The notes beneath the pieces are model-generated. The model did not search any database. It was given only the letters and a program-made list of their open reading frames with translations, and was not told where the DNA came from. Positions 2,490 through 18,797 of a DNA stretch of 26,221 bases are shown piece by piece (the first letter of the stretch is position 1; each line of letters opens with the position of its first letter). The DNA is from a virus (Duplodnaviria; Heunggongvirae; Uroviricota; Caudoviricetes), in the IMG/VR virus record IMGVR_UViG_2617270943_000001, positions 1 to 26,221 of that record; one strand, 5' to 3'. The position numbers and the translations under genes were made by a program.

Positions 2490-2650
2490 ACAGCTCCCCG
2501 TTTATTATTTATCTCCTCAGCCAGCCGCTGTGCTTTCAGGGGATTTCGGATAACAGAAAGGCCGGGAAATACCCAGCCTCGCTTCGTAACGGAGTAGACG
2601 AAAGTGATCGTGCCTACGCGGATATTATCGTGAGGATGTTTCATCGCCAT
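2462..2650 (-). CDS. Hypothetical small prophage protein, 62 aa
   Basis: Start overlaps the exo stop by about 10 nt, a typical phage operon coupling arrangement. Function unknown. Confidence 0.4.
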
Positions 2651-3321
2651 TGCTCCCCAAATACAAAACCAATTTCAGCCAGTGCCTCGTCCATTTTTTC
2701 GATGAACTCCGGCACCATCTCGTCAAAACTCGCTATATACTTTTCATTCCGCTCAATCACGACATAATGCAGGCCTTCACGCTTCATACGCGGGTCATAG
2801 TTGGCAAAGTACCAGGCATCTTTTCGCGTCACCCACATGCTGTACTGCACCTGGGCCATGTAAGCCGATTTTATTGCCTCGAAACCACCGAGCCGGAATT
2901 TCATGAAATCCCGGGAGGTAAACGGGCATTTCAGTTCAAGGCCGTTGCCGTCACTGCATAAACCATCGGGAGAGCAGGCGGTGCGCATACTTTCGTCGCG
3001 ATAGATGATCGGGGATTCAGTAACATTCACGCCGGAAGTAAACTCAAACAGGGCTCTGGCGTCATTCTCGTACTGTTTTCCCCAGGCCAGCGCCTTAGCG
3101 TTAACTTCCGGAGCCACACCGGTGCAAATCTCAGCCAGCAGGGTGTGAAAGTAGGACATTTTCATGTCAGGCCACTTTTTTCCGGAGCGGGGTTTTGCTA
3201 TCACATTGTGAACTTCTGAAGCCGTGATGACGCCGAGTCGTAATTTGTTCCACGCATCATCTCCCTGTTCGACAGCTCTCACGTCGATCCCGGTACGCTG
3301 CAGGATAATGTCCGGTGTCAT
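2641..3321 (-). CDS. exo: Lambda-type exonuclease (Red alpha), 226 aa
   Basis: Translation [24 protein letters not shown]...[10 protein letters not shown] is near-identical over its full length to phage lambda Exo as I recall it; located directly downstream of bet. Confidence 0.95.
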
Positions 3322-4103
3322 GCTGCCACCTTCTGCTCAGTGGCTTTCTGTTTCAGGAATCCAAGAGCTTTCACTGCTTCGGCCTGTGTCAGTTCTGACG
3401 ATGCGCGAATGTCGCGGCGAAATATCTGGGAACAGAGCGGCAATAAGTCGTCATCCCATGTTTTATCCAGGGCGATCAGCAGAGTGTTAATCTCCTGCAT
3501 GGTTTCATCGTTAACCGGAGTGATGTCGCGTTCCGGCTGACGTTCTGCAGTGTATGCGGTATTTTCGACAATGCGCTCGGCTTCATCCTTGTCATAGATA
3601 CCAGCAAATCCGAAGGCGAGACGGGCACACTGAATCATGGCTTTATGCCGTAACATCCGTTTGGGATGCGACTGCCACGGCCCCGTGATTTCTCTGCCTT
3701 CGCGGGTTTTGAATGGTTCGCGGCGGCATTCATCCATCCACTCGGTAACGCAGATCGGATGATTACGGTCCTTGCGGTAAATCCGGCATGTACATGATTC
3801 ATTGTCCTGCTCAAAGTCCATGCCATCAAACTGCTGGTTTTCATTGATGATACGGGACCAGCCATCAACGCCCACCACCGGAACGATGCCGTTCTGCTTG
3901 TCAGGGAAGGCGTAAATTTCTTTCGTCCACGGATTAAGGCCGTACTGGTTGGCGACGATCAACAATGCGATGAACTGCGCATCGCTGGCATCACCTTTAA
4001 ATGCCGTCTGGCGAAGAGTGGTGATCAGTTCCTGTGGGTCGACAGAATCCATGCCGACACGTTCAGCCAGCTTCCCAGCCAGCGTTGCGAGTGCTGTACT
4101 CAT
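3318..4103 (-). CDS. bet: Single-strand annealing protein Bet (Red beta), 261 aa
   Basis: Translation [48 protein letters not shown]... matches lambda Bet; start/stop overlap with exo as in lambda. Confidence 0.95.
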
Positions 4104-4108
4104 CCGTT

Positions 4109-4405
4109 TTATACCTCTGAATCAATATCAACCTGGTGGTGAGCAATGGTTTCAACCATGTACCGGATGTGTTCTGCCATGCGCTCCTGAAACTCAACAT
4201 CGTCATCAAACGCACGGGTAATGGCTTTTTTGCTGGCCCCGTGGCGTTGCAAATGATCGATGCATAGCGATTCAAACAGGTGCTGGGGCAGGCTTTTTTC
4301 CATGTCGTCTGCCAGTTCTGCCTCTTTCTCTTCACGGGCGAGCTGCTGGTAGTGACGCGCCCAGCTCTGAGCCTCAAGACGATCCTGAATGTAATAAGCG
4401 TTCAT
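4109..4405 (-). CDS. gam: Gam, RecBCD inhibitor (short GamS-type form, 98 aa)
   Basis: Translation [37 protein letters not shown]...[10 protein letters not shown] matches lambda Gam from its internal start; AGGAG Shine-Dalgarno upstream of the ATG at 4405. Confidence 0.9.
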
Positions 4406-4481
4406 GGCTGAACTCCTGAAAATGGCTGTGAAAATATCGCCCGCGAAATGCCAGGCTGATTAGGAAAACAGGAAAGGGGGG

Positions 4482-4772
4482 TTAGTGATTCAGGCCGTTA
4501 CCGCGTCCGTCGAGAAAAACTTCCACGAGCAAATCACTGGTATAAGTGCGCTCGATGCCGCGATGCAGATAAAGCCGTCCGCGTAAATTAGCTGATGCAG
4601 TCCAGGTACCATCTTTGTGTTTGACCAGCATTCCTGGCATGACCGCGCCGCGATTAACGGTCTGTGTTCCGTAATGTTGATGAACCATAAAAACTCCTGC
4701 CCGTAAGCTGGGCTGCTGAACATATAGAGACTTCTGCGCATATTCAGGCGGTGGATGGCCGCCGGTTGTCAT
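4482..4772 (-). CDS. Hypothetical protein, first gene downstream of putative pL (96 aa from ATG at 4772; alternative TTG start at 4892 would add an Arg-rich N-terminus)
   Basis: ORF 4482..4892 on minus strand; the internal ATG at 4772 has a GAGG Shine-Dalgarno, whereas the TTG at 4892 has none. Not recognised as any lambda early protein. Confidence 0.35.
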   Translation of the reverse strand: MTTGGHPPPEYAQKSLYVQQPSLRAGVFMVHQHYGTQTVNRGAVMPGMLVKHKDGTWTASANLRGRLYLHRGIERTYTSDLLVEVFLDGRGNGLNH

Positions 4773-4959
4773 AACTAAGCCGCCTCGTTGAAGCGACTGA
4801 GGTATGAAATGTTGAGTTAATTTCAGCTGGTCACACCGACGTTCACGCGTCCGTTTCACCCCTCGCACTCCCCGAAGCCTGCTGAAATTCAAACTGCGGA
4901 TCTAAGCGGTCATCGCAACGGTGAATCAGGTAGTTGCCGTATCGTTGTGTTGTTGCGAT

Positions 4960-5040
4960 GAACTTATTTAAAACTATAGTTGTTTTATCGTCAACAACAA
5001 AAGTTGTTTTATTGGTTGTTTTAGATATAACTGGTTGTAT
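4960..5040 (-). promoter_or_regulatory. Putative pL promoter and OL operators
   Basis: Minus strand reads TTGTTGTTGACGATAAAACAACTATAGTTTTAAAT, almost identical to the pR module TGGTTGTTGACTAAAAACAACCATAGTTTTAATCT. -35 TTGACG at 4994..4989; several GTTGTT/AACAAC half-sites arranged as dyads. Confidence 0.55.
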
Positions 5041-5120
5041 TTAGGATGGATTTATTTTGTGACTTGAATCGCATAGCGATAACTGAAGCGAGGTTATGGT
5101 GGTTTTTTTAACGGTGTGTG

Positions 5121-5152
5121 TGATGAGGGGAGGGCAAAAGAAAACCCGGCAC
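5121..5152 (-). terminator. Putative rho-independent terminator downstream of cI
   Basis: Minus strand has a CCCGG-8 nt-CCGGG hairpin followed by TTTTCTTTT; lies between the cI stop and the pL region. Confidence 0.4.
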
Positions 5153-5283
5153 GGTGACCGGGATTCTTACGCCGTTAGGTAAAGATATTATTGCGGTGGC
5201 TTAATATTACTACCTAGAGCAAAGATAGGAATTAGTTCTTTACTGAATGAGCACAATGCCCAGTTGATAATTTTTAATTGGTA

Positions 5284-5973
5284 CTACCCATGCTTCCTAT
5301 ATGTCTGCGGCATGCTCCCAATAACCTTACCGAAGATGAACACCCGGTTCATCTCGTCTTTCTCGATCGGGTCCCACGGTGAGTAGCTTTTGTTATCAGA
5401 GATGACCAGCAGCTTATCCTTCATCATTTGCAGGCGCTTTACATGGGCTGTGTCGTCGTACAGAAACGCATAGATACCATCACCGTCGAAAGATTTAACT
5501 GTGATATCAACGAACAGCAGATCACCTGGTTCGATCGTTCCTGACATGCTGTCACCACGCACGTTAATGATGCGGATATTTTCCGCCTTCCTACCATCGA
5601 ACATGTGACGAGCATCGTCAAACGAGTACTCAACCGAGCGTAGAACTTCTACAAACTCACGGTTGATGACTCCCGGCCCAGCACTGACTTCTATATCAAG
5701 AACGTCAATCTTGAAGTATTTGGAATGGCTGACAGTTGATTGTATTGGTTGCACTGTACTGTCTGACATATTTCCAACGCCAGAAGATAACCATTCTGCG
5801 CGCACACCCAAAGCGTTCGCGATCTCCACGATTTTAGTTGTTTGATTAGCTTTCCCTGTTTCGATTTTCTGAATAGCAGCCTGGCTAACCCCGACCAAAT
5901 CCCCAAGCGCCTTTTGTGTAAGGCCTCGCGCTAATCTGGCTTCTTTAAGTCTTTCTGAGAGTGTTGTTTTCAT
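5284..5973 (-). CDS. cI: cI-type repressor: N-terminal HTH plus C-terminal S24 (LexA-like) autopeptidase, 230 aa
   Basis: HTH LTQKALGDLVGVSQAAIQKIE; Ala-Gly cleavage site (SAGPG); catalytic Ser (GDSM) and Lys (VKRL). Divergent from the cro-like gene across an operator-rich spacer. ATG at 5973 has no Shine-Dalgarno, consistent with a leaderless PRM transcript as in lambda. Confidence 0.85.
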   Translation of the reverse strand: MKTTLSERLKEARLARGLTQKALGDLVGVSQAAIQKIETGKANQTTKIVEIANALGVRAEWLSSGVGNMSDSTVQPIQSTVSHSKYFKIDVLDIEVSAGPGVINREFVEVLRSVEYSFDDARHMFDGRKAENIRIINVRGDSMSGTIEPGDLLFVDITVKSFDGDGIYAFLYDDTAHVKRLQMMKDKLLVISDNKSYSPWDPIEKDEMNRVFIFGKVIGSMPQTYRKHG

Positions 5974-5979
5974 AGTCCA

Positions 5980-6077
5980 AATGTACAACCAAGGTTTTAT
6001 TCCATCAAACGAAAATGGTTGTTGACTAAAAACAACCATAGTTTTAATCTTGATTCAAATTAACCACGGAGGTTGTT
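5980..6077. promoter_or_regulatory. OR operators with divergent pR and pRM
   Basis: Dyad TGGTTGTT-7 bp-AACAACCA (6017..6039) overlaps a -35 TTGACT (6022..6027), 17-bp spacer and -10 TAATCT (6045..6050). Further ACAACCA/GGTTGTT half-sites at about 5986 and 6071. GGAGG Shine-Dalgarno before the cro ATG. Confidence 0.6.
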
Positions 6078-6308
6078 ATGAACCCAGCTATCAAAACAGC
6101 GATCAATATCGTTGGTTCACAAAAGAAACTGGGCGCTGCTTGCGAAGTTTCACAGCAGGCCGTCTATAAGTGGCTTCACAACAAAGCAAAGGTATCCCCT
6201 GAACATGTCGGCAGCATTGTTACGGCTACTGGTGGAGTAGTGAAGGCATACCAGATTCGCACGGATCTTCCGAAGTTGTTTCCACACACCGAAAAGAACG
6301 CAGCTTAA
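6078..6308 (+). CDS. cro: Cro-like HTH repressor, 76 aa
   Basis: Small HTH protein (GSQKKLGAACEVSQQAVYKWL) transcribed divergently from cI off the pR-like promoter. Confidence 0.75.
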   Translation: MNPAIKTAINIVGSQKKLGAACEVSQQAVYKWLHNKAKVSPEHVGSIVTATGGVVKAYQIRTDLPKLFPHTEKNAA

Positions 6309-6320
6309 ATTTCCATTTCA

Positions 6321-6333
6321 CGCTCTTTAACAA
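6321..6333 (+). promoter_or_regulatory. boxA-like element (candidate nutR component)
   Basis: CGCTCTTTAACAA lies 13 nt after the cro stop and matches the boxA consensus (lambda CGCTCTTA, rrn GCTCTTTAACAA). No convincing boxB hairpin seen downstream. Confidence 0.4.
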
Positions 6334-6377
6334 TAAGCAATCAACTTAACAGTCAATTCAAACTAAAGGAGTCAATT

Positions 6378-6917
6378 ATGCAACCACTTCCATACCAACA
6401 GACTAGCGGATTTAGCCCGACTGCGGTGATAAATCGTTCTCAAACAAAACAGGTGCCAGGCCACGAAAAAATCCGTGATGCCGTCCGCGCCTGGTCGGCT
6501 GTAGATAATCAGGATGTCGTTGCCACACTCATTGTGAATGAGTATCGGGAGCAGGGCGGCGGCACCATCGATTTCCCTGATGATGTCAGCCGTGCACGCC
6601 AGAAGCTGTTCCGCTTCCTCGATAACAAATTCGATTCTGAAAAATACCGAAATAACGTGCGTGAACTGACCCCGGCAATTCTGGCGGTACTAACGCTGGA
6701 ATATCGCGGTTACCTGGTTGAGCAGGATAGCTTCATGGCCAGGTTGGCTGAAATGGAAAAGGAACTCAGTGAGGCAAAACAGGCTGTCATTCTCAACGCA
6801 CCACGCCACCAGAAACTGAAGGAAATTAGTGAAGGTATTGTATCGATGTTTCGTGTGGACCCAGATCTGGCTGGTCCATTGATGGCGATGGTTACTACCA
6901 TGCTGGGGGCGATATGA
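6378..6917 (+). CDS. YdaT-family protein in the cII position, 179 aa
   Basis: Conserved blocks YREQGGG and ELTPAILAVLTLEYR resemble Rac prophage YdaT as I recall it; located between cro and O; AGGAG Shine-Dalgarno. Confidence 0.65.
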   Translation: MQPLPYQQTSGFSPTAVINRSQTKQVPGHEKIRDAVRAWSAVDNQDVVATLIVNEYREQGGGTIDFPDDVSRARQKLFRFLDNKFDSEKYRNNVRELTPAILAVLTLEYRGYLVEQDSFMARLAEMEKELSEAKQAVILNAPRHQKLKEISEGIVSMFRVDPDLAGPLMAMVTTMLGAI

Positions 6918-7003
6918 CAGGTTCAGAAATGGCGAAAGCCGGTCTGCTGGAACAGAACCGACTTTCAGGTGCAAATCGTAACACACTCATTGCGGGAGGA
7001 ATT

Positions 7004-7933
7004 ATGGCAAACACTGCTGAGATATTCAATTTTCCAGTGCCGGATGCGGCACAAAAGGAGCCGCGCGTGGCAGATCTCGATGATGGTTATACGCGCATTG
7101 CAAATGAGTTGCTGGAAGCTGTGATGCTGGCCGGATTAACACAGCACCAGCTTCTGGTCTTCCTGGCTGTCATGCGCAAAACATATGGCTTTAATAAAAA
7201 ACTGGATTGGGTGAGCAACGAGCAACTGTCCGGATTGACCGGGATATTACCGCACAAGTGTTCTGCTGCAAAAAGTGTTCTGGTAAAGCGTGGGATTTTG
7301 ATTCAGAGCGGGCGGAATATCGGTATTAATAATGTGGTCAGTGAATGGTCAACATTACCCGAATCAGGTAAGAAAAATAAAGTTTACCTGAAAGAGGTAA
7401 ATTTACCTGAATCAGGTAAGAAAAGTTTACCCAAATCAGGTAAAGGCGTTTACCCGAATCAGGTAAACACAAAAGACAAACTAACAAAAGACAATATAAA
7501 ACCTTTTTCGTCCGAGAATTCTGGCGAATCCTCTGACCAACCAGAAAACGATCTTCCTGTGGTGAAACCAGATGCTGCAATTCAGAGCGGCAGCAAGTGG
7601 GGGACAGCAGAAGACCTGACCGCCGCAGAGTGGATGTTTGACATGGTGAAGACCATCGCACCATCAGCCAGAAAACCGAATTTTGCAGGGTGGGCTAACG
7701 ATATCCGCCTGATGCGTGAACGTGACGGACGTAACCACCGCGACATGTGCGTGCTTTTCCGCTGGGCATGCCAGGACAACTTCTGGTCCGGTAACGTGCT
7801 AAGTCCGGCCAAACTCCGCGACAAGTGGACCCAACTCGAAATCAACCGTAACAAGCAACAGGCAGGCATGATAGCCAGCAAACCAAAACTCGACCTGACA
7901 AACACTGACTGGATTTACGGGGTGGATTTATGA
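7004..7933 (+). CDS. O: Replication initiator O (start at internal ATG 7004 with GGGAGGA Shine-Dalgarno)
   Basis: C-terminal about 100 aa (AEWMFDMVKTIAPSARKPNFAGWANDIRLMRERDG...TNTDWIYGVDL) is near-identical to lambda O; N-terminal domain is O-like; contains ori iterons internally. Confidence 0.9.
   Translation: MANTAEIFNFPVPDAAQKEPRVADLDDGYTRIANELLEAVMLAGLTQHQLLVFLAVMRKTYGFNKKLDWVSNEQLSGLTGILPHKCSAAKSVLVKRGILIQSGRNIGINNVVSEWSTLPESGKKNKVYLKEVNLPESGKKSLPKSGKGVYPNQVNTKDKLTKDNIKPFSSENSGESSDQPENDLPVVKPDAAIQSGSKWGTAEDLTAAEWMFDMVKTIAPSARKPNFAGWANDIRLMRERDGRNHRDMCVLFRWACQDNFWSGNVLSPAKLRDKWTQLEINRNKQQAGMIASKPKLDLTNTDWIYGVDL
7356..7468 (+). repeat. Origin iterons: five tandem copies of about 18 bp (TTTACCCGAATCAGGTAA-like), followed by an A-rich tract
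   Basis: Direct repeats at about 7356, 7383 (degenerate), 7402, 7426 and 7448 inside O, followed by ACACAAAAGACAAACTAACAAAAGACAATATAAAAC, mirroring the lambda ori layout. Confidence 0.75.
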
Positions 7934-8631
7934 AAAACATCGCCGCACAGATGGTTAACTTTGACCGTGAGCAGATGCGTCGGATCGCCAACAACATGCC
8001 GGAACAGTACGACGAAAAGCCGCAGGTACAGCAGGTAGCGCAGATCATCAACGGTGTGTTCAGCCAGTTACTGGCAACTTTCCCGGCGAGCCTGGCTAAC
8101 CGTGACCAGAATGAACTGAACGAAATCCGCCGCCAGTGGGTGCTGGCTTTTCGGGAAAACGGGATCACCACAATGGAACAGGTTAACGCTGGAATGCGCG
8201 TAGCCCGTCGGCAGAATCGACCATTCCTGCCATCACCCGGGCAGTTTGTCGCCTGGTGCCGGGAAGAAGCATCCGTTACCGCCGGGCTGCCAAACGCCAG
8301 CGAGCTGGTTGATATGGTTTACGAGTATTGCCGGAAGCGCGGGCTGTATCCGGATGCAGAGTCTTATCCGTGGAAATCAAACGCGCACTACTGGCTGGTT
8401 ACCAACCTGTATCAGAACATGCGGGCCAATGCGTTGACTGACGCGGAATTACGGCGCAAGGCTGCCGATGAACTGTCCTGTATGACCGCACGAATTAACC
8501 GTGGTGAGGCTATACCTGAACCAGTAAAACAACTTCCTGTCATGGGCGGTAGACCTCTAAATCGTGCACAGGCTCTGGCGAAGATCGCAGAAATCAAAGC
8601 TAAGTTTGGGCTGAAAGGAGCAAGGGTATGA
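7930..8631 (+). CDS. P: Replication protein P (DnaB helicase loader), 233 aa
   Basis: Translation MKNIAAQMVNFDREQMRRIANNMPEQYDEKPQVQQVAQ... is near-identical to lambda P; ATGA overlap with the O stop. Confidence 0.95.
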   Translation: MKNIAAQMVNFDREQMRRIANNMPEQYDEKPQVQQVAQIINGVFSQLLATFPASLANRDQNELNEIRRQWVLAFRENGITTMEQVNAGMRVARRQNRPFLPSPGQFVAWCREEASVTAGLPNASELVDMVYEYCRKRGLYPDAESYPWKSNAHYWLVTNLYQNMRANALTDAELRRKAADELSCMTARINRGEAIPEPVKQLPVMGGRPLNRAQALAKIAEIKAKFGLKGARV

Positions 8632-8930
8632 CGGGCAAAGAGGCAATTATTCATTACCTGGGGACTCATAAGAAATTCTGTGCGCAGGACGTTGCCGCGG
8701 TAACAGGCGCAACGGTAACCAGCATAAATCAGGCTGCGGCTAAAATGGCACGGGCAGGTCTTCTGGCTATCGAAGGTAAGGTCTGGCGAACGGTGTATTA
8801 CCGGTTTGCTACCAGAGAAGAACGGGAAGGAAAGGTGAGCACGAATCTGATTTTTAAGGAGTGTCGCCAGAGTGCCGCGATGAAACGGGTATTGAGGGTA
8901 TATAAAAGAACATCAATGGGTACACAATGA
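8628..8930 (+). CDS. ren: Ren protein, 100 aa
   Basis: Translation MTGKEAIIHYLGTH...AAKMARAGLL...VWRTVYYRFATREEREGK matches lambda Ren; overlaps the P stop. Confidence 0.85.
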   Translation: MTGKEAIIHYLGTHKKFCAQDVAAVTGATVTSINQAAAKMARAGLLAIEGKVWRTVYYRFATREEREGKVSTNLIFKECRQSAAMKRVLRVYKRTSMGTQ

Positions 8931-9361: not shown

Positions 9362-9394
9362 GAGGCTCTTATATTTATATGAGCCTCGTTTTAT
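9362..9394 (+). terminator. Rho-independent terminator after emrE
   Basis: GAGGCTC-loop-GAGCCTC hairpin followed by GTTTTATGCTTTTTG. Confidence 0.5.
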
Positions 9395-9584
9395 GCTTTT
9401 TGTTAATGTCTTTATTTTTTATGTATTCTTTTGTGCTTTCAAGATTATGGCGTAAGAAAATTGCAATACGATTATTGTTGTATATTCAAGATAATGTGAC
9501 CTTAATTGTCTTTTTAAATAAAAATTAAACAAAATTATATCCCACCACTAAGGTTTATAAAAGCATACGTTAGCAGGTGTCACC

Positions 9585-11111: not shown

Positions 11112-11255
11112 GTAATAATCACTTTTTCAACCGTGCTATAGTAAGAAAGTTAGGTAAGTACATTTAGACTGGCCCCCTGAATCTCCAGACAACCAATATC
11201 ACTTAAATAAGTGATAGTCTTAATACTAGTTTTTAGACTAGTCATTGGAGAACAG

Positions 11256-11621
11256 ATGATTGATGTCTTAGGGCCGGAGAAACGCAGACGGCGTACCACA
11301 CAGGAAAAGATCGCAATTGTTCAGCAGAGCTTTGAACCGGGGATGACGGTCTCCCTCGTTGCCCGGCAACATGGTGTAGCAGCCAGCCAGTTATTTCTCT
11401 GGCGTAAGCAATACCAGGAAGGAAGTCTTACTGCTGTCGCCGCCGGAGAACAGGTTGTTCCTGCCTCTGAACTTGCTGCCGCCATGAAGCAGATTAAAGA
11501 ACTCCAGCGCCTGCTCGGCAAGAAAACGATGGAAAATGAACTCCTCAAAGAAGCCGTTGAATATGGACGGGCAAAAAAGTGGATAGCGCACGCGCCCTTA
11601 TTGCCCGGGGATGGGGAGTAA
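11256..11621 (+). CDS. insC: IS2 transposase OrfA (InsC)
   Basis: Translation [47 protein letters not shown]... with HTH; ends just after the AAAAAAG slippery heptamer at 11573..11579. Confidence 0.9.
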
Positions 11622-12484
11622 GCTTAGTCAGCCGTTGTCTCCGGGTGTCGCGTGCGCAGTTGCACGTCATTCTCAGACGAACCGATGACTGGATGGATGG
11701 CCGCCGCAGTCGTCACACTGATGATACGGATGTGCTTCTCCGTATACACCATGTTATCGGAGAGCTGCCCACGTATGGTTATCGTCGGGTATGGGCGCTG
11801 CTTCGCAGACAGGCAGAACTTGATGGTATGCCTGCGATCAATGCCAAACGTGTTTACCGGATCATGCGCCAGAATGCGCTGTTGCTTGAGCGAAAACCTG
11901 CTGTACCGCCATCGAAACGGGCACATACAGGCAGAGTGGCCGTGAAAGAAAGCAATCAGCGATGGTGCTCTGACGGGTTCGAGTTCTGCTGTGATAACGG
12001 AGAGAGACTGCGTGTCACGTTCGCGCTGGACTGCTGTGATCGTGAGGCACTGCACTGGGCGGTCACTACCGGCGGCTTCAACAGTGAAACAGTACAGGAC
12101 GTCATGCTGGGAGCGGTGGAACGCCGCTTCGGCAACGATCTTCCGTCGTCTCCAGTGGAGTGGCTGACGGATAATGGTTCATGCTACCGGGCTAATGAAA
12201 CACGCCAGTTCGCCCGGATGTTGGGACTTGAACCGAAGAACACGGCGGTGCGGAGTCCGGAGAGTAACGGAATAGCAGAGAGCTTCGTGAAAACGATAAA
12301 GCGTGACTACATCAGTATCATGCCCAAACCAGACGGGTTAACGGCAGCAAAGAACCTTGCAGAGGCGTTCGAGCATTATAACGAATGGCATCCGCATAGT
12401 GCGCTGGGTTATCGCTCGCCACGGGAATATCTGCGGCAGCGGGCTTGTAATGGGTTAAGTGATAACAGATGTCTGGAAATATAG
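11579..12484 (+). CDS. insD: IS2 transposase OrfB (InsD; DDE catalytic domain, expressed by -1 frameshift fusion to OrfA)
   Basis: The ORF is in the -1 frame relative to insC and overlaps it by 43 nt; sequence matches IS2 InsD as recalled, with the DDE catalytic core expected for an IS3-family OrfB. Confidence 0.9.
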
Positions 12485-15292: not shown

Positions 15293-15377
15293 AGTCAGAG
15301 ATAACAATCAACTAATACTGTTTCGTTGATTTTTGCTTGTAATTGGCGTTCTGGTCTGATTTTTGTGGAGTAAGTTG

Positions 15378-15761
15378 ATGCGTGATATTCAGATGGTTCT
15401 TGAGCGTTGGGGAGCGTGGGCGGCTAATAATCATGAAGATGTGACCTGGTCGTCCATTGCCGCCGGTTTTAAGGGATTAATTACTTCAAAAGTAAAATCT
15501 CGCCCGCAATGTTGTGACGATGACGCGATGATCATTTGCGGGTGCATGGCCCGTCTGAAAAAGAACAACAGCGATTTGCACGATTTATTAGTAGATTATT
15601 ATGTAGTCGGTATGACATTCATGTCACTGGCAGGTAAGCATTGCTGCTCTGATGGTTATATCGGGAAAAGGTTACAGAAGGCTGAGGGCATAATTGAAGG
15701 GATGTTAATGGCATTAGATATCCGGTTAGAGATGGATATCGTTGTTAATAACTCTAATTAA
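15378..15761 (+). CDS. quuD: Late-gene antiterminator Q (phage 82/DLP12 QuuD type), 127 aa
   Basis: Translation [24 protein letters not shown]... with Cys-rich zinc-binding region ([16 protein letters not shown]); positioned after rusA and before the lysis genes. Confidence 0.8.
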
Positions 15762-15813: not shown

Positions 15814-15965
15814 AAAAATAAAGGGTAATATATAACAGAAGGTTTGTATAGTTAGAAGCAAGGTTGTGCTTCTAAAGGAAGTGGCTTGAGGGAGCCACTT
15901 ATATGTTGGGGAGGCAAAGCCTCCCACAACATATCTTTTAGTAATCAAATTAGAACTGGTAAACC
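15814..15965 (-). ncRNA. Candidate small RNA between the porin 3' end and the minus-strand terminator (IpeX-like position)
   Basis: Three perfect 8-bp hairpins (15853..15874, 15879..15900, 15901..15934) plus the terminator hairpin in under 180 nt, co-directional with the porin gene. The DLP12 sRNA IpeX is reported at the nmpC 3' end; sequence identity not verified. Confidence 0.25.
15901..15940 (+). terminator. Rho-independent terminator on plus strand (candidate tR' of the late operon)
   Basis: Extended hairpin ATATGTTG-GGGAGGC-AAA-GCCTCCC-ACAACATAT followed by CTTTT, about 140 nt downstream of Q. Confidence 0.5.
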
Positions 15966-17032
15966 ATACCTACAGCAACGATATCATCGGTAGCAACGCC
16001 AGATGCTTTCGTGAAATCGCTCTTATCAATCAGGTTGATTTTGTAGTCAACAAAAGTGGACATATTTTTGTTGAAGTAATAGGTTGCACCTACATCAACA
16101 TATTCAACCAGGTCCTGATCACCCCAAACACCCAAGTCTTTTCCTTTAGAATGCAGGTAAGCAACGGATGGACGCAGGCCGAAGTCGAACTGATATTGTG
16201 CAACAGCTTCGAAGTTTTGTGCTTTGTTGGCAATATGGTTATTACCAAAAACAGTCATGTTCTGGGTTTCAGAATAGGTGGTGGCCAGATAGATGTTGTT
16301 CGCATCATATTTCAGACCAGCTGCCCATACTTCAGCATTTTGACCAGAAGCATTCAGACCGTTGTTACCGTAGATAACCTGATTATTAGTGCGATCAGAT
16401 TTAGCATAGGTTGCACCCACGCCGAATCCTTCATACTCATAAGTAGTTGAGAAACCGAAACCATCGCCATTAGCTTCAGTTACTTCATTTCGGTCATTTT
16501 TGCCCTGATACTGAGCTGCAAAGTTCAGGCCATCAACCAGACCAAAGAAGTCGTTGTTACGATAAGTTGCAACACCTGTGGTGCGACCAGTCATGAATAC
16601 ATCTGTTTGGGTCCAGGTATCGCCACCGAATTCTGGCAGAACGTCAGTCCACGCACCGATGTCGTATGCTACACCGTAGTTACGGCCGTAATCGATTGAG
16701 CCGTAGTCACCGAATTTCAGGCCTGCAAATGCAAGACGGGTTTTGTCTTTGGAGGAACCTTGAGATTCAGCGCGGTTGCCTTTGAATTCATATTCCCACT
16801 GACCGAAACCAGTCAGTTGATCGTTGATTTGGGTTTCACCTTTGAAGCCAAGACGGGCATAAGTAGTATCACCATCATCTGCATCATTAGAGGAGAAGTA
16901 GTGCTTAGCATTAACTTTCCCGTACAGATCCAGCTTGTTACTGTCTTTATTATAAATTTCAGCTGCCTGAGCAGACATCGCCATCAGTACTGATGCAGCT
17001 ACAGCAGAAATTGCCACTGTTAATTTTTTCAT
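15950..17032 (-). CDS. nmpC: General porin of the OmpC/OmpF/PhoE family (NmpC/Lc-type phage-encoded porin), 360 aa
   Basis: Signal peptide [29 protein letters not shown], porin motifs and C-terminal VGMVYQF. Encoded antisense to the late operon between Q and the lysis genes, as in DLP12 and PA-2. Confidence 0.9.
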
Positions 17033-17620
17033 CGTGAGCCCTTTTTTTTGAACTATTATTAAAAAATGATGTCACTGCGCGATAAATATTCATCTAATCA
17101 ATGTGATTATTTCAAGATGTAAGTTTTAGTTTCTCATTTAATTTGTGAAGTAGATCTCTATTTTTATCTGAACTTTTTCTATCGAAACCTATTTATGGCT
17201 CTTATTTGAACAAAAATAAACCTATTAGCTAATTTATATTAATGGCTGTTATTTATGGGGGTTCTATAATTCGGCAGTTTAATTTAAATCAACTAAAAAT
17301 AACGTCTGAAATTATTTATTGGTTATTTGTTGAGGTTTTCTTATGTATTTGTGGTGGAGTTTTGAACACTCGGTAGCATTCTCATAAATATCATTCAGCG
17401 GTTTACGTACGTAAAAAATTGGTTATGCTGTTAAGAGTGGTTACTTCGTCACACAGCTTAAACCCGCCGTCGAGCTGGTTTTTCCATTTTTTGAGTCTCG
17501 ATATTAGCTGATAACTCAATACCTGAGTTATTCACTGACTCCGAGTCTGTTACGTTTCTGCTTTTTTGCGATACGTTGTATTCCCTCAATTTACACCCGC
17601 TTTGTCTGCGAGGTGGGGTT

Positions 17621-17836
17621 ATGAAATCCATGGATAAGTTAACAACGGGTGTCGCCTATGGCACCTCAGCAGGTAGTGCCGGTTACTGGTTTTTACAGCT
17701 GCTCGATAAAGTCACGCCCTCACAGTGGGCAGCAATAGGTGTGCTGGGTAGCCTGGTATTTGGCCTGCTGACGTACCTGACAAACCTTTATTTCAAGATT
17801 AAAGAAGATAAGCGCAAGGCTGCGAGAGGTGAATAA
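17621..17836 (+). CDS. essD: Class II holin (phage 21 S-type pinholin) with dual-start motif MKSM, 71 aa
   Basis: Translation [71 protein letters not shown] matches S21; two TM segments; Met1/Met4 dual start. Confidence 0.85.
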
Positions 17837-18333
17837 TGCCTCCATCATTACGAAAAGCCGTTGCTGCTGCTATTGGTGGCGGAGCAATTGCTATAGCATC
17901 AGTGTTAATCACTGGCCCAAGTGGTAACGATGGTCTGGAAGGTGTCAGCTACATACCATACAAAGATATTGTTGGTGTATGGACTGTATGTCACGGGCAT
18001 ACAGGAAAAGACATCATGCTCGGTAAAACGTATACCAAAGCAGAATGCAAAGCCCTCCTGAATAAAGACCTTGCCACGGTCGCCAGACAAATTAACCCGT
18101 ACATAAAAGTTGATATACCGGAAACAACGCGCGGCGCTCTTTACTTGTTCGTTTACAACGTGGGCGCTGGCAATTTCAGAACATCGACGCTTCTTCGCAA
18201 AATAAACCAGGGCGATATCAAAGGCGCATGTGATCAGCTACGTCGCTGGACATATGCTGGCGGTAAGCAATGGAAAGGTCTCATGACTCGTCGTGAGATT
18301 GAGCGTGAAATCTGTTTGTGGGGTCAGCAATGA
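17836..18333 (+). CDS. rrrD: SAR (signal-anchor-release) endolysin, lysozyme family, 165 aa
   Basis: Gly/Ala-rich N-terminal SAR segment ([20 protein letters not shown]) followed by a lysozyme domain; TAATG overlap with the holin stop. Confidence 0.85.
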
Positions 18334-18797
18334 ACAGAGTAACCGCGATTATCTCCGCTCTGGTTATCTGCATCATCGTCTGCCTGTCATGGGCTGTTAA
18401 TCATTACCGTGATAATGCAATCGCCTACAAAGAACAGCGCGATAACAAGGCCAGTGAACTGGAGAAGGCGAACGCCACCATTACTGACATGCAGCAGCGC
18501 CAGCGTGATGCTGATGCACTCGATGATAAATACACGAAGGAGTTAGCTGATGCGAAAGCTGAAAATGATGCTCTTCGGCGCAAGCTTGATAATGGTGGTC
18601 GGGTGCTCGTCAAAGGAAAATGCCCTGTGCCATCCTCAGCCGAAACCTCCAGCGCCTCCGGCATGGGCAATGATGCCACCGTCGAACTCTCTCCAGTTGC
18701 TGGACGAAACGTTCTCGGTATCCGGGACGGAATTATCCGCGACCAAACAGCACTGAGAACGCTTCAGGAATACATCAGGACGCAATGCCTTCGATGA
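18330..18797 (+). CDS. rzpD: Spanin inner-membrane subunit Rz, 155 aa
   Basis: N-terminal TM segment followed by a coiled-coil-rich periplasmic domain; ATGA overlap with the endolysin stop; Rz1 embedded in the +1 frame. Confidence 0.8.
18550..18756 (+). CDS. rzoD: Spanin outer-membrane lipoprotein subunit Rz1 (embedded within Rz)
   Basis: Lipoprotein signal with VVGC lipobox, then Pro-rich [16 protein letters not shown], entirely inside Rz in a different frame. Confidence 0.7.

Follow-up and report, generated by a model that had tools for sequence, protein, structure and literature searches.

Results

Genes and signals of the early region

The window, that is, the whole stretch of DNA analysed here, is 26,221 nucleotides long (positions 1 to 26,221 of IMG/VR record IMGVR_UViG_2617270943_000001). 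It represents the 26-kb early and lysis half of a temperate, lambda/DLP12-like phage. Over the 2.6 kb of its immunity region (4400-7000) it shares 99.4% identity with Escherichia phage PhiR34_1 (PV340559), an accession for which we found no publication, and it is also very similar there to phages PhiR5_1, PhiR47_2, PhiR26_1, IdasGreatGrand and Turner. The features on which the analysis rests are the following.

1-1164, - strand: int
1958-1985, - strand: hairpin and U tract resembling an intrinsic terminator, within the pL operon (dG -10.2, z -3.3)
2641-3321, - strand: exo
3318-4103, - strand: bet
4109-4405, - strand: gam
4482-4772, - strand: kil-like gene, first of the pL operon, in the usual place of N (phrog_294 at 1.9e-38)
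4773-4958, - strand: pL leader, without boxA, boxB or put
about 4994-4966, - strand: pL with AACAAC-type operators, -35 TTGACG and -10 TTAAAT (read from the sequence)
5284-5976, - strand: cI repressor with HTH and S24 peptidase domains (phrog_4 at 6e-73, PF00717, PF01381)
6015-6050, + strand: oR/pR, operator palindrome ATGGTTGTT..AACAACCAT, -35 TTGACT at 6022-6027 and -10 TAATCT at 6045-6050 (read from the sequence)
6078-6308, + strand: cro, a YdaS-family HTH protein of 76 aa (PF15943 at 6.6e-16, phrog_35 at 4e-26)
6309-6377, + strand: untranslated cro-ydaT spacer of 69 nt, containing boxA and the ydaT Shine-Dalgarno sequence AAGGAG
6321-6333, + strand: boxA, CGCTCTTTAACAA
6378-6917, + strand: ydaT, a YdaT-type CII analogue and the first gene after boxA (phrog_163 at 1e-65, PF06254 at 1.7e-28)
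6914-8930, + strand: O, P and ren
9362-9402, + strand: hairpin and U tract resembling an intrinsic terminator, 3' of an emrE-like moron and on the path from pR to Q (dG -13.6 kcal/mol, z -4.0)
15363-15761, + strand: Q-type late antiterminator (phrog_79 at 4e-53)
17576-18797, + strand: lysis genes

Q is the sole recognisable antitermination protein of the window. The interval from ren to Q is filled by DLP12-like morons and an IS3-family insertion, whose transposase pair orfA/orfB (phrog_151/157; 11211-12484, + strand) sits between a ybcK-like recombinase and an Ant-like ORF. This insertion in the rightward early operon is not found at that place in PhiR34_1. An insertion sequence on the path from pR to Q would normally be polar. 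Q is separated from the holin, just like in DLP12, by an OmpD/NmpC-like porin gene of 360 aa (15950-17032, - strand). The hairpin at 9362-9402 is present in PhiR34_1 and in 16 other loci, and both terminator-like hairpins (9362-9402, + strand; 1958-1985, - strand) are common to relatives.

The AACAAC-type pL operators recur in Salmonella phage UPF_BP1 and in loci L089, L091, L087 and L292. A hotspot for cargo separates the cI terminator from pL (L007-L086; PhiR47_2, PhiR5_1, 4A7). In many loci the conserved pL leader lies 750-1600 bp farther from cro, and annotated relatives carry GevT/GevA, HipA/HipD or ASCH-domain genes within the immunity region, in 4A7 directly between cI and the leader.

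A consensus boxA between cro and ydaT

The initial annotation described a textbook boxA immediately after cro, and this description proved exact. The element CGCTCTTTAACAA (6321-6333, + strand) starts 12 nt past the cro stop (6308) and ends 45 nt before the ydaT start (6378). The gamma-proteobacterial boxA consensus is GYTCTTTAANA, in which C4 is critical (Baniulyte 2017); the window matches it at every position, C4 included, over the 11-mer GCTCTTTAACA at 6322-6332, and is also a perfect match to the 12-mer GCTCTTTAACAA. It is close, too, to CGCTCTT(T)A, the boxA consensus of lambda-type nut sites. It is of the rrn/phage-21 form: the boxA of phage 21 is that of E. coli rrn, and NusB-S10 binds this form more tightly than the lambda boxA (PMC3177189). 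No other match to GYTCTTTAANA occurs in the whole window. In shuffled windows, 0.15 consensus matches are expected per window on both strands (at least one match in 13 of 100 shuffles), and the expectation for a sense match inside the 69-nt spacer falls to about 2e-4 (0.15 x 69/52442).

The boxA lies outside every ORF of at least 40 aa, downstream of pR and cro, and is presumably transcribed from pR. The RNA around it is unstructured, as folds of the spacer and the 5' end of ydaT were no better than those of shuffled sequences (z +0.63, +1.15 and -0.76). The 78 nt at 6282-6359 contain 22 C and 7 G and form the most C-rich and G-poor stretch near the start of the right operon; windows of this kind around the spacer rank at about the 99th percentile of the whole window. 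In this respect the spacer offers a generic rut-like context that resembles lambda nutR/tR1. The ydaT Shine-Dalgarno sequence is strong and lies 27 nt downstream of boxA. The boxA core GCUCUUU (6322-6328) can pair with this AAGGAGU (6359-6366), and this pairing is seen in both the MFE and the centroid structure when the spacer is folded alone, although it is weak (-3.3 kcal/mol, z -0.76).

Rfam scans of the window at gathering thresholds and at permissive ones returned noise only. Among the E. coli strains listed from CFT073 onward by Baniulyte et al. (Table S2), the locus was not identified; the prophage boxA entries for these strains lie 3 nt before cII/C1 genes, and two entries for a 'hypothetical protein' lie at 31 nt.

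The partners of a nut site are missing

In folds of 6290-6400, of 6309-6480 and of the isolated spacer, no boxB hairpin was found next to boxA, and the cro-ydaT spacer holds no tR1-like hairpin either. The 45 nt 3' of boxA have an MFE of -1.5 kcal/mol, versus -18 to -23 kcal/mol for the same region with two hairpins in relatives. Nor is there a second boxA after pL: none was found at up to 2 mismatches, and the - strand of 4400-5000 is devoid of a GCTCTTW core. The pL leader has no significant fold (z -0.35). Among 20 early ORFs, PHROGs and Pfam profiles gave no match to N or Nun, and tblastn of nine N types taken from relatives and of HK022 Nun against the window gave only matches with E above 0.1. 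The absence of boxB, of a boxA in the pL leader and of a recognisable N protein, all reported in the initial annotation, is thus borne out.

It had also been proposed that N might be present in a highly divergent form. This is not supported: the pL operon opens with kil, none of the early ORFs is similar to any of the ten N/Nun types, and the one arginine-rich stretch is non-coding. The latter came from a six-frame scan of the early region for N-terminal arginine-rich motifs (ARM) which, besides out-of-frame ORFs overlapping other genes, flagged a single candidate, the in-frame extension of kil MKRTRERRCDQ (4859-4773, - strand). We rejected this stretch, MKRTRERRCDQLK (4773-4859, - strand), as an N-type ARM: across 53 variants, its substitutions do not favor third codon positions, the frame is broken by a 5-nt insertion in one locus (L023), and the Arg codons derive from a CG-rich hairpin. 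Codon-position bias of substitutions in kil begins near 4740. Translation of kil probably starts at 4688, in which case the pL leader would measure about 270 nt.

As lambdoid phages without N may rely on put RNAs, a covariance model was built from five of them (HK022 putL and putR, HK639 putL, UPF_BP1 putL and putR). All five are recovered at E<=1e-22, and a putL outside the training set is found, at 5e-14, in locus L123, described below. In the window the best match has an E value of 0.5, lies inside gene O and is not credible. Weak matches to the model fall at one homologous site in the 5' part of gene O, in the window (7037-7111, + strand, E 0.5), in L003 (3472-3546, E 0.019) and in L002 (6981-7055, E 2.5), probably by chance. 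The phage of the window is therefore left with a lone boxA, N, put and nutL all being absent.

The boxA occupies the position of nutR in relatives

Diverged cro homologues (41, with 49-84% protein identity) were collected from species-representative genomes. About 17 of the 41 are followed, 7-25 nt past the cro stop, by a boxA-like element. The consensus is perfect in 6 of 16 such elements after cro in relatives, so that a perfect consensus is not special to the window. In ten relatives examined in detail, boxA lies 7-8 nt past the cro stop, a boxB-like hairpin follows 4-9 nt after it, then a second hairpin, an AT-rich run and a lambda-type cII. The spacer is 102-115 nt long in these N-dependent relatives, versus 69 nt in the window. 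Relatives also carry boxA and boxB just after pL on the opposite strand, followed by an ORF with an N-type ARM; examples are a P22-type nutL with N (L102) and a lambda-type N (L107). Locus L292 has the same AACAAC-type operators as the window, together with a canonical nutR.

By position, the window boxA is homologous to the nutR boxA of N-dependent relatives from the same cro/operator family. The lineage of the window has lost N and nutL, together with the two hairpins, which account for about 40 nt. A chance origin of the 13-mer can be dismissed. Random expectation is 0.15 copies of the 11-mer consensus per window, yet here all 13 nt agree, on the sense strand, in a 69-nt spacer and at the place of the boxA-like element of some 17 diverged relatives, a positional homology which effectively refutes this origin.

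Homology with the phages that share ydaT stops exactly at the ydaT ATG, hence the spacer belongs to the immunity cassette. In the closest cro relatives of the window, from Kosakonia and Enterobacter (L089, about 1039, - strand; L091, about 2153, - strand), the operators are of the same type and the pL leader starts like that of HK639, then carries TGCTTTTTAACAACATG, a boxA in which T replaces the critical C4, with no N-like ORF downstream. L091 has no boxA after cro.

Distribution and variation of the cassette

Of 5426 complete E. coli genomes, 1507 contain the cro-boxA-ydaT cassette (at least 80% query coverage and at least 94% identity), and it is 94-100% identical wherever it is found. Selection on boxA was sought in IMG/VR loci anchored on the end of cro and the start of ydaT, initially 80 and then 119. 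The 119 loci contain 6 spacer haplotypes, and a single substitution inside boxA, found as a singleton. With such uniformity, conservation of boxA says nothing about selection, and the test is underpowered. The sole natural substitution in boxA (L067/L210) is A to G, a purine exchange at position 9, and a structural comparison between Aquifex and E. coli suggests that purine exchange is tolerated there (PMC3177189). Another haplotype combines a 12-nt duplication, ACTGATTAACAG, just 3' of an unchanged boxA with a G-to-A change in the Shine-Dalgarno sequence (L003 at 2732-2812, L133, L138, L216, L219 and L228). A scan of viral contigs for GCTCTTTAACAATC gave a cro context for 4 among the 120 matches listed.

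Sister phages with and without boxA

Four isolated phages, 4A7, PhiR68_2, PhiR70_1 and Perceval (type B below), share with the window the pL leader-kil segment and the ydaT-O-P-ren segment at about 94-97% identity, and have a different immunity cassette. The pL leader of the window is about 96% identical to that of 4A7. Their cro-ydaT spacer is 30 nt long, and their early regions contain no boxA at up to 2 mismatches, no N and no put. The gene ydaT follows a different, boxA-less cro in 4A7, and likewise in HK639, where no boxA was found after cro. Since sister phages on the same backbone lack it, boxA is dispensable for that backbone.

A lone right-operon boxA is found once more in L123, a prophage of Candidatus Pantoea communis. 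It carries an HK022-type putL (2444-2524, - strand, E 5e-14), neither putR nor N, and a perfect boxA, CGCTCTTTAACAAT (3731-3744, + strand), 15 nt after cro and followed by a structured spacer of 267 nt. L123 is a second, independent N-less lineage with such an element.

Discussion

A boxA without an N system

Because boxB, the tR1-like hairpin, nutL and the N gene have all been lost, the boxA of the window is no longer part of an N system. The initial annotation left three options for it: a highly divergent N, a different mechanism, or a relic. The last two both survive in a sharper form, now with homology to the nutR position added.

We tentatively favor the view that this is a genuine boxA, derived from a lambda/P22-type nutR and orphaned, which is still competent as a stand-alone Nus-loading site with an accessory effect. 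As RNA polymerase leaves cro, NusB-S10 would bind boxA on the pR transcript and, with NusA, NusG and SuhB, would form an N-independent complex like those at rrn and at CRISPR-array leaders. This complex would mask the RNA from Rho or outrun it at the cro-ydaT junction and farther downstream, with no action on intrinsic terminators, so that the most likely consequence would be a mild, N-independent protection from Rho. Whereas the sequence, position, lack of partners and ancestry of boxA are shown by the sequences, Nus binding and the anti-Rho effect are proposed here by analogy. A stand-alone boxA recruits SuhB and Nus factors and blocks Rho at CRISPR arrays (PMC7665894), it also acts in the suhB mRNA (Baniulyte 2017), and at rrn reporters as at CRISPR arrays the Nus/SuhB complex on boxA keeps Rho-dependent termination down (PMC7665894; Baniulyte 2017). 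For NusB-S10 to bind a consensus boxA, N is not required (PMC3177189).

The retention of a perfect boxA after cro in the N-less L123 supports a stand-alone role, and the strong intrinsic-type terminator at 9362-9402, between boxA and Q, speaks against it. Complexes of the rrn type counter Rho, and are not expected to read through strong intrinsic terminators. In addition, translation coupling through the strong ydaT Shine-Dalgarno sequence may by itself already exclude Rho. Such an effect would be accessory and not essential, given that boxA is missing from sister phages whose downstream operon is the same. For the same reason, and since a boxA-only complex counters Rho and not the terminator at 9362-9402, processive antitermination in the rightward operon, which the initial annotation suggested, is not established.

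Nearly as likely as an active stand-alone boxA is an inert relic, carried along with cro after the loss of N, nutL and boxB, which may bind NusB-S10 without consequence and has not yet had time to decay. Type-B sisters and HK639 manage without boxA, and the near identity of cassette copies (94-100%) leaves little time for decay; yet the adjacent hairpins were lost while boxA stayed intact, and L123, in a second N-less lineage, kept a perfect copy as well. The natural variant with an altered boxA (L067/L210) fits an inert element, as do intrinsic-type terminators in both early operons that are beyond a boxA-only complex. On the other hand, a consensus boxA in accessible, untranslated RNA has sufficed for Nus recruitment, with a measurable effect, in every bacterial context tested (PMC7665894; Baniulyte 2017).

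A stronger claim can be formulated. Phages devoid of N and put must pass the terminator-like sites at 9362-9402 (+ strand) and 1985-1958 (- strand) to reach Q and int/xis. It could be that the immunity cassette, carried by over a quarter of complete E. coli genomes, has its delayed-early operon driven by an N-independent boxA-Nus-SuhB complex of the rrn/CRISPR type. On a wider scale, the lambda-like group without N and put (PhiR34_1, 4A7/Bievrevirus and relatives) could pass the intrinsic-type terminators of both early operons by a yet-unrecognised mechanism. We regard this claim as doubtful.

Attenuation and hidden partners

A role opposite to protection is conceivable, as in suhB. Nus factors bound to boxA would loop the RNA to RNA polymerase and hinder access of ribosomes to the ydaT Shine-Dalgarno sequence; less of the CII analogue would be translated, and Rho would terminate within ydaT, in a Nus-dependent, tR1-like checkpoint tuning the choice between lysis and lysogeny. 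The 45 nt from boxA to the ydaT ATG are within the range of working suhB repression (up to 100 nt of inserted spacer), and lambda N is autoregulated from nutL some 200 nt upstream (Baniulyte 2017). However, the suhB boxA lies in a 5' UTR and not behind a translated gene, and the same ydaT is regulated without boxA in type-B phages. The rut-like spacer and a weak complementarity of boxA to the ydaT Shine-Dalgarno sequence would fit such a checkpoint, but this Shine-Dalgarno sequence is strong, and its pairing with boxA amounts to just -3.3 kcal/mol (z -0.76). We hold attenuation to be improbable.

Still less probable, to the point of being very hard to credit, is a partner that escaped recognition, be it an N that has diverged very far or a novel protein or RNA of the phage, which would work together with boxA as a nut site of non-canonical type. 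N proteins are short and evolve quickly, the N analogue of mEp021 is encoded in the right operon, and several small ORFs have no assigned function; yet the type-B phages possess all the candidate ORFs and have no boxA. No coding ORF bears an ARM, the stretch upstream of kil (4859-4773) being non-coding, and the ten N/Nun types gave no match by tblastn. The terminator-like sites at 9362-9402 and 1985-1958 must be passed somehow, which would suit such a partner, whereas the lack of any hairpin near boxA and of a second boxA does not.

Relation to known systems

The nutR sites of lambda, P22 and phage 21, which N reads with NusA/B/E/G, share with the window element their location, after cro and before a CII-type gene, and their class of boxA sequence, the form of phage 21 and rrn being GCTCTTTAACA. 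They differ in having boxB and N, as the window has no boxB, tR1-like hairpin, nutL or N, and a spacer about 40 nt shorter. Like the boxA of rrn and of CRISPR leaders, the window has a consensus boxA without a phage cofactor, placed ahead of a long transcription unit in RNA that is accessible and untranslated. Those elements, however, protect untranslated RNAs, whereas the genes downstream of the window boxA are translated, and the element is not kept in sister phages. In the suhB 5' UTR, as in the window, boxA and the start codon of a regulatory gene are no more than 50 nt apart, and the complex at the suhB boxA can repress translation of the nearby gene and provoke Rho termination (Baniulyte 2017). 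That boxA follows a promoter, whereas the window boxA is phage-borne and located behind a translated gene.

The put RNAs of HK022 and HK639 solve the same problem in N-less lambdoids with RNA only, and the window has no sequence or structure resembling them. Such RNAs are nonetheless present within this immunity family. UPF_BP1, whose operators and cro are related to those of the window, has putL after pL and putR exactly at the place of the window boxA. HK639 has an annotated putL, and L123 combines putL with a boxA after cro.

Significance

The element of the window can be described as a nut site of which only boxA is left or, in other terms, as a stand-alone boxA carried by a phage. If it is active, the phage keeps using the host Nus machinery after the loss of N, as an intermediate between N-dependent antitermination and N-free early regulation, and a phage case would join the short list of stand-alone boxA targets (rRNA, suhB and CRISPR arrays). 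Should the N-independent boxA-Nus-SuhB complex indeed drive the pR operon, this would be the first known case of a phage exploiting host Nus factors with no phage-encoded antiterminator involved. Prophages with this cassette abound in E. coli, O157:H7 and other clinical strains among them, so that whatever boxA did to Rho-mediated silencing or to induction would be widespread. An inert element, in turn, would make the locus a clean case of modular nut-site decay, and a warning against inferring N-type antitermination from boxA alone. Either way, N-less lambdoids are usually assumed to use HK022-type put RNA (PMC12315714), and this assumption fails for the group formed by PhiR34_1, 4A7 and their relatives.
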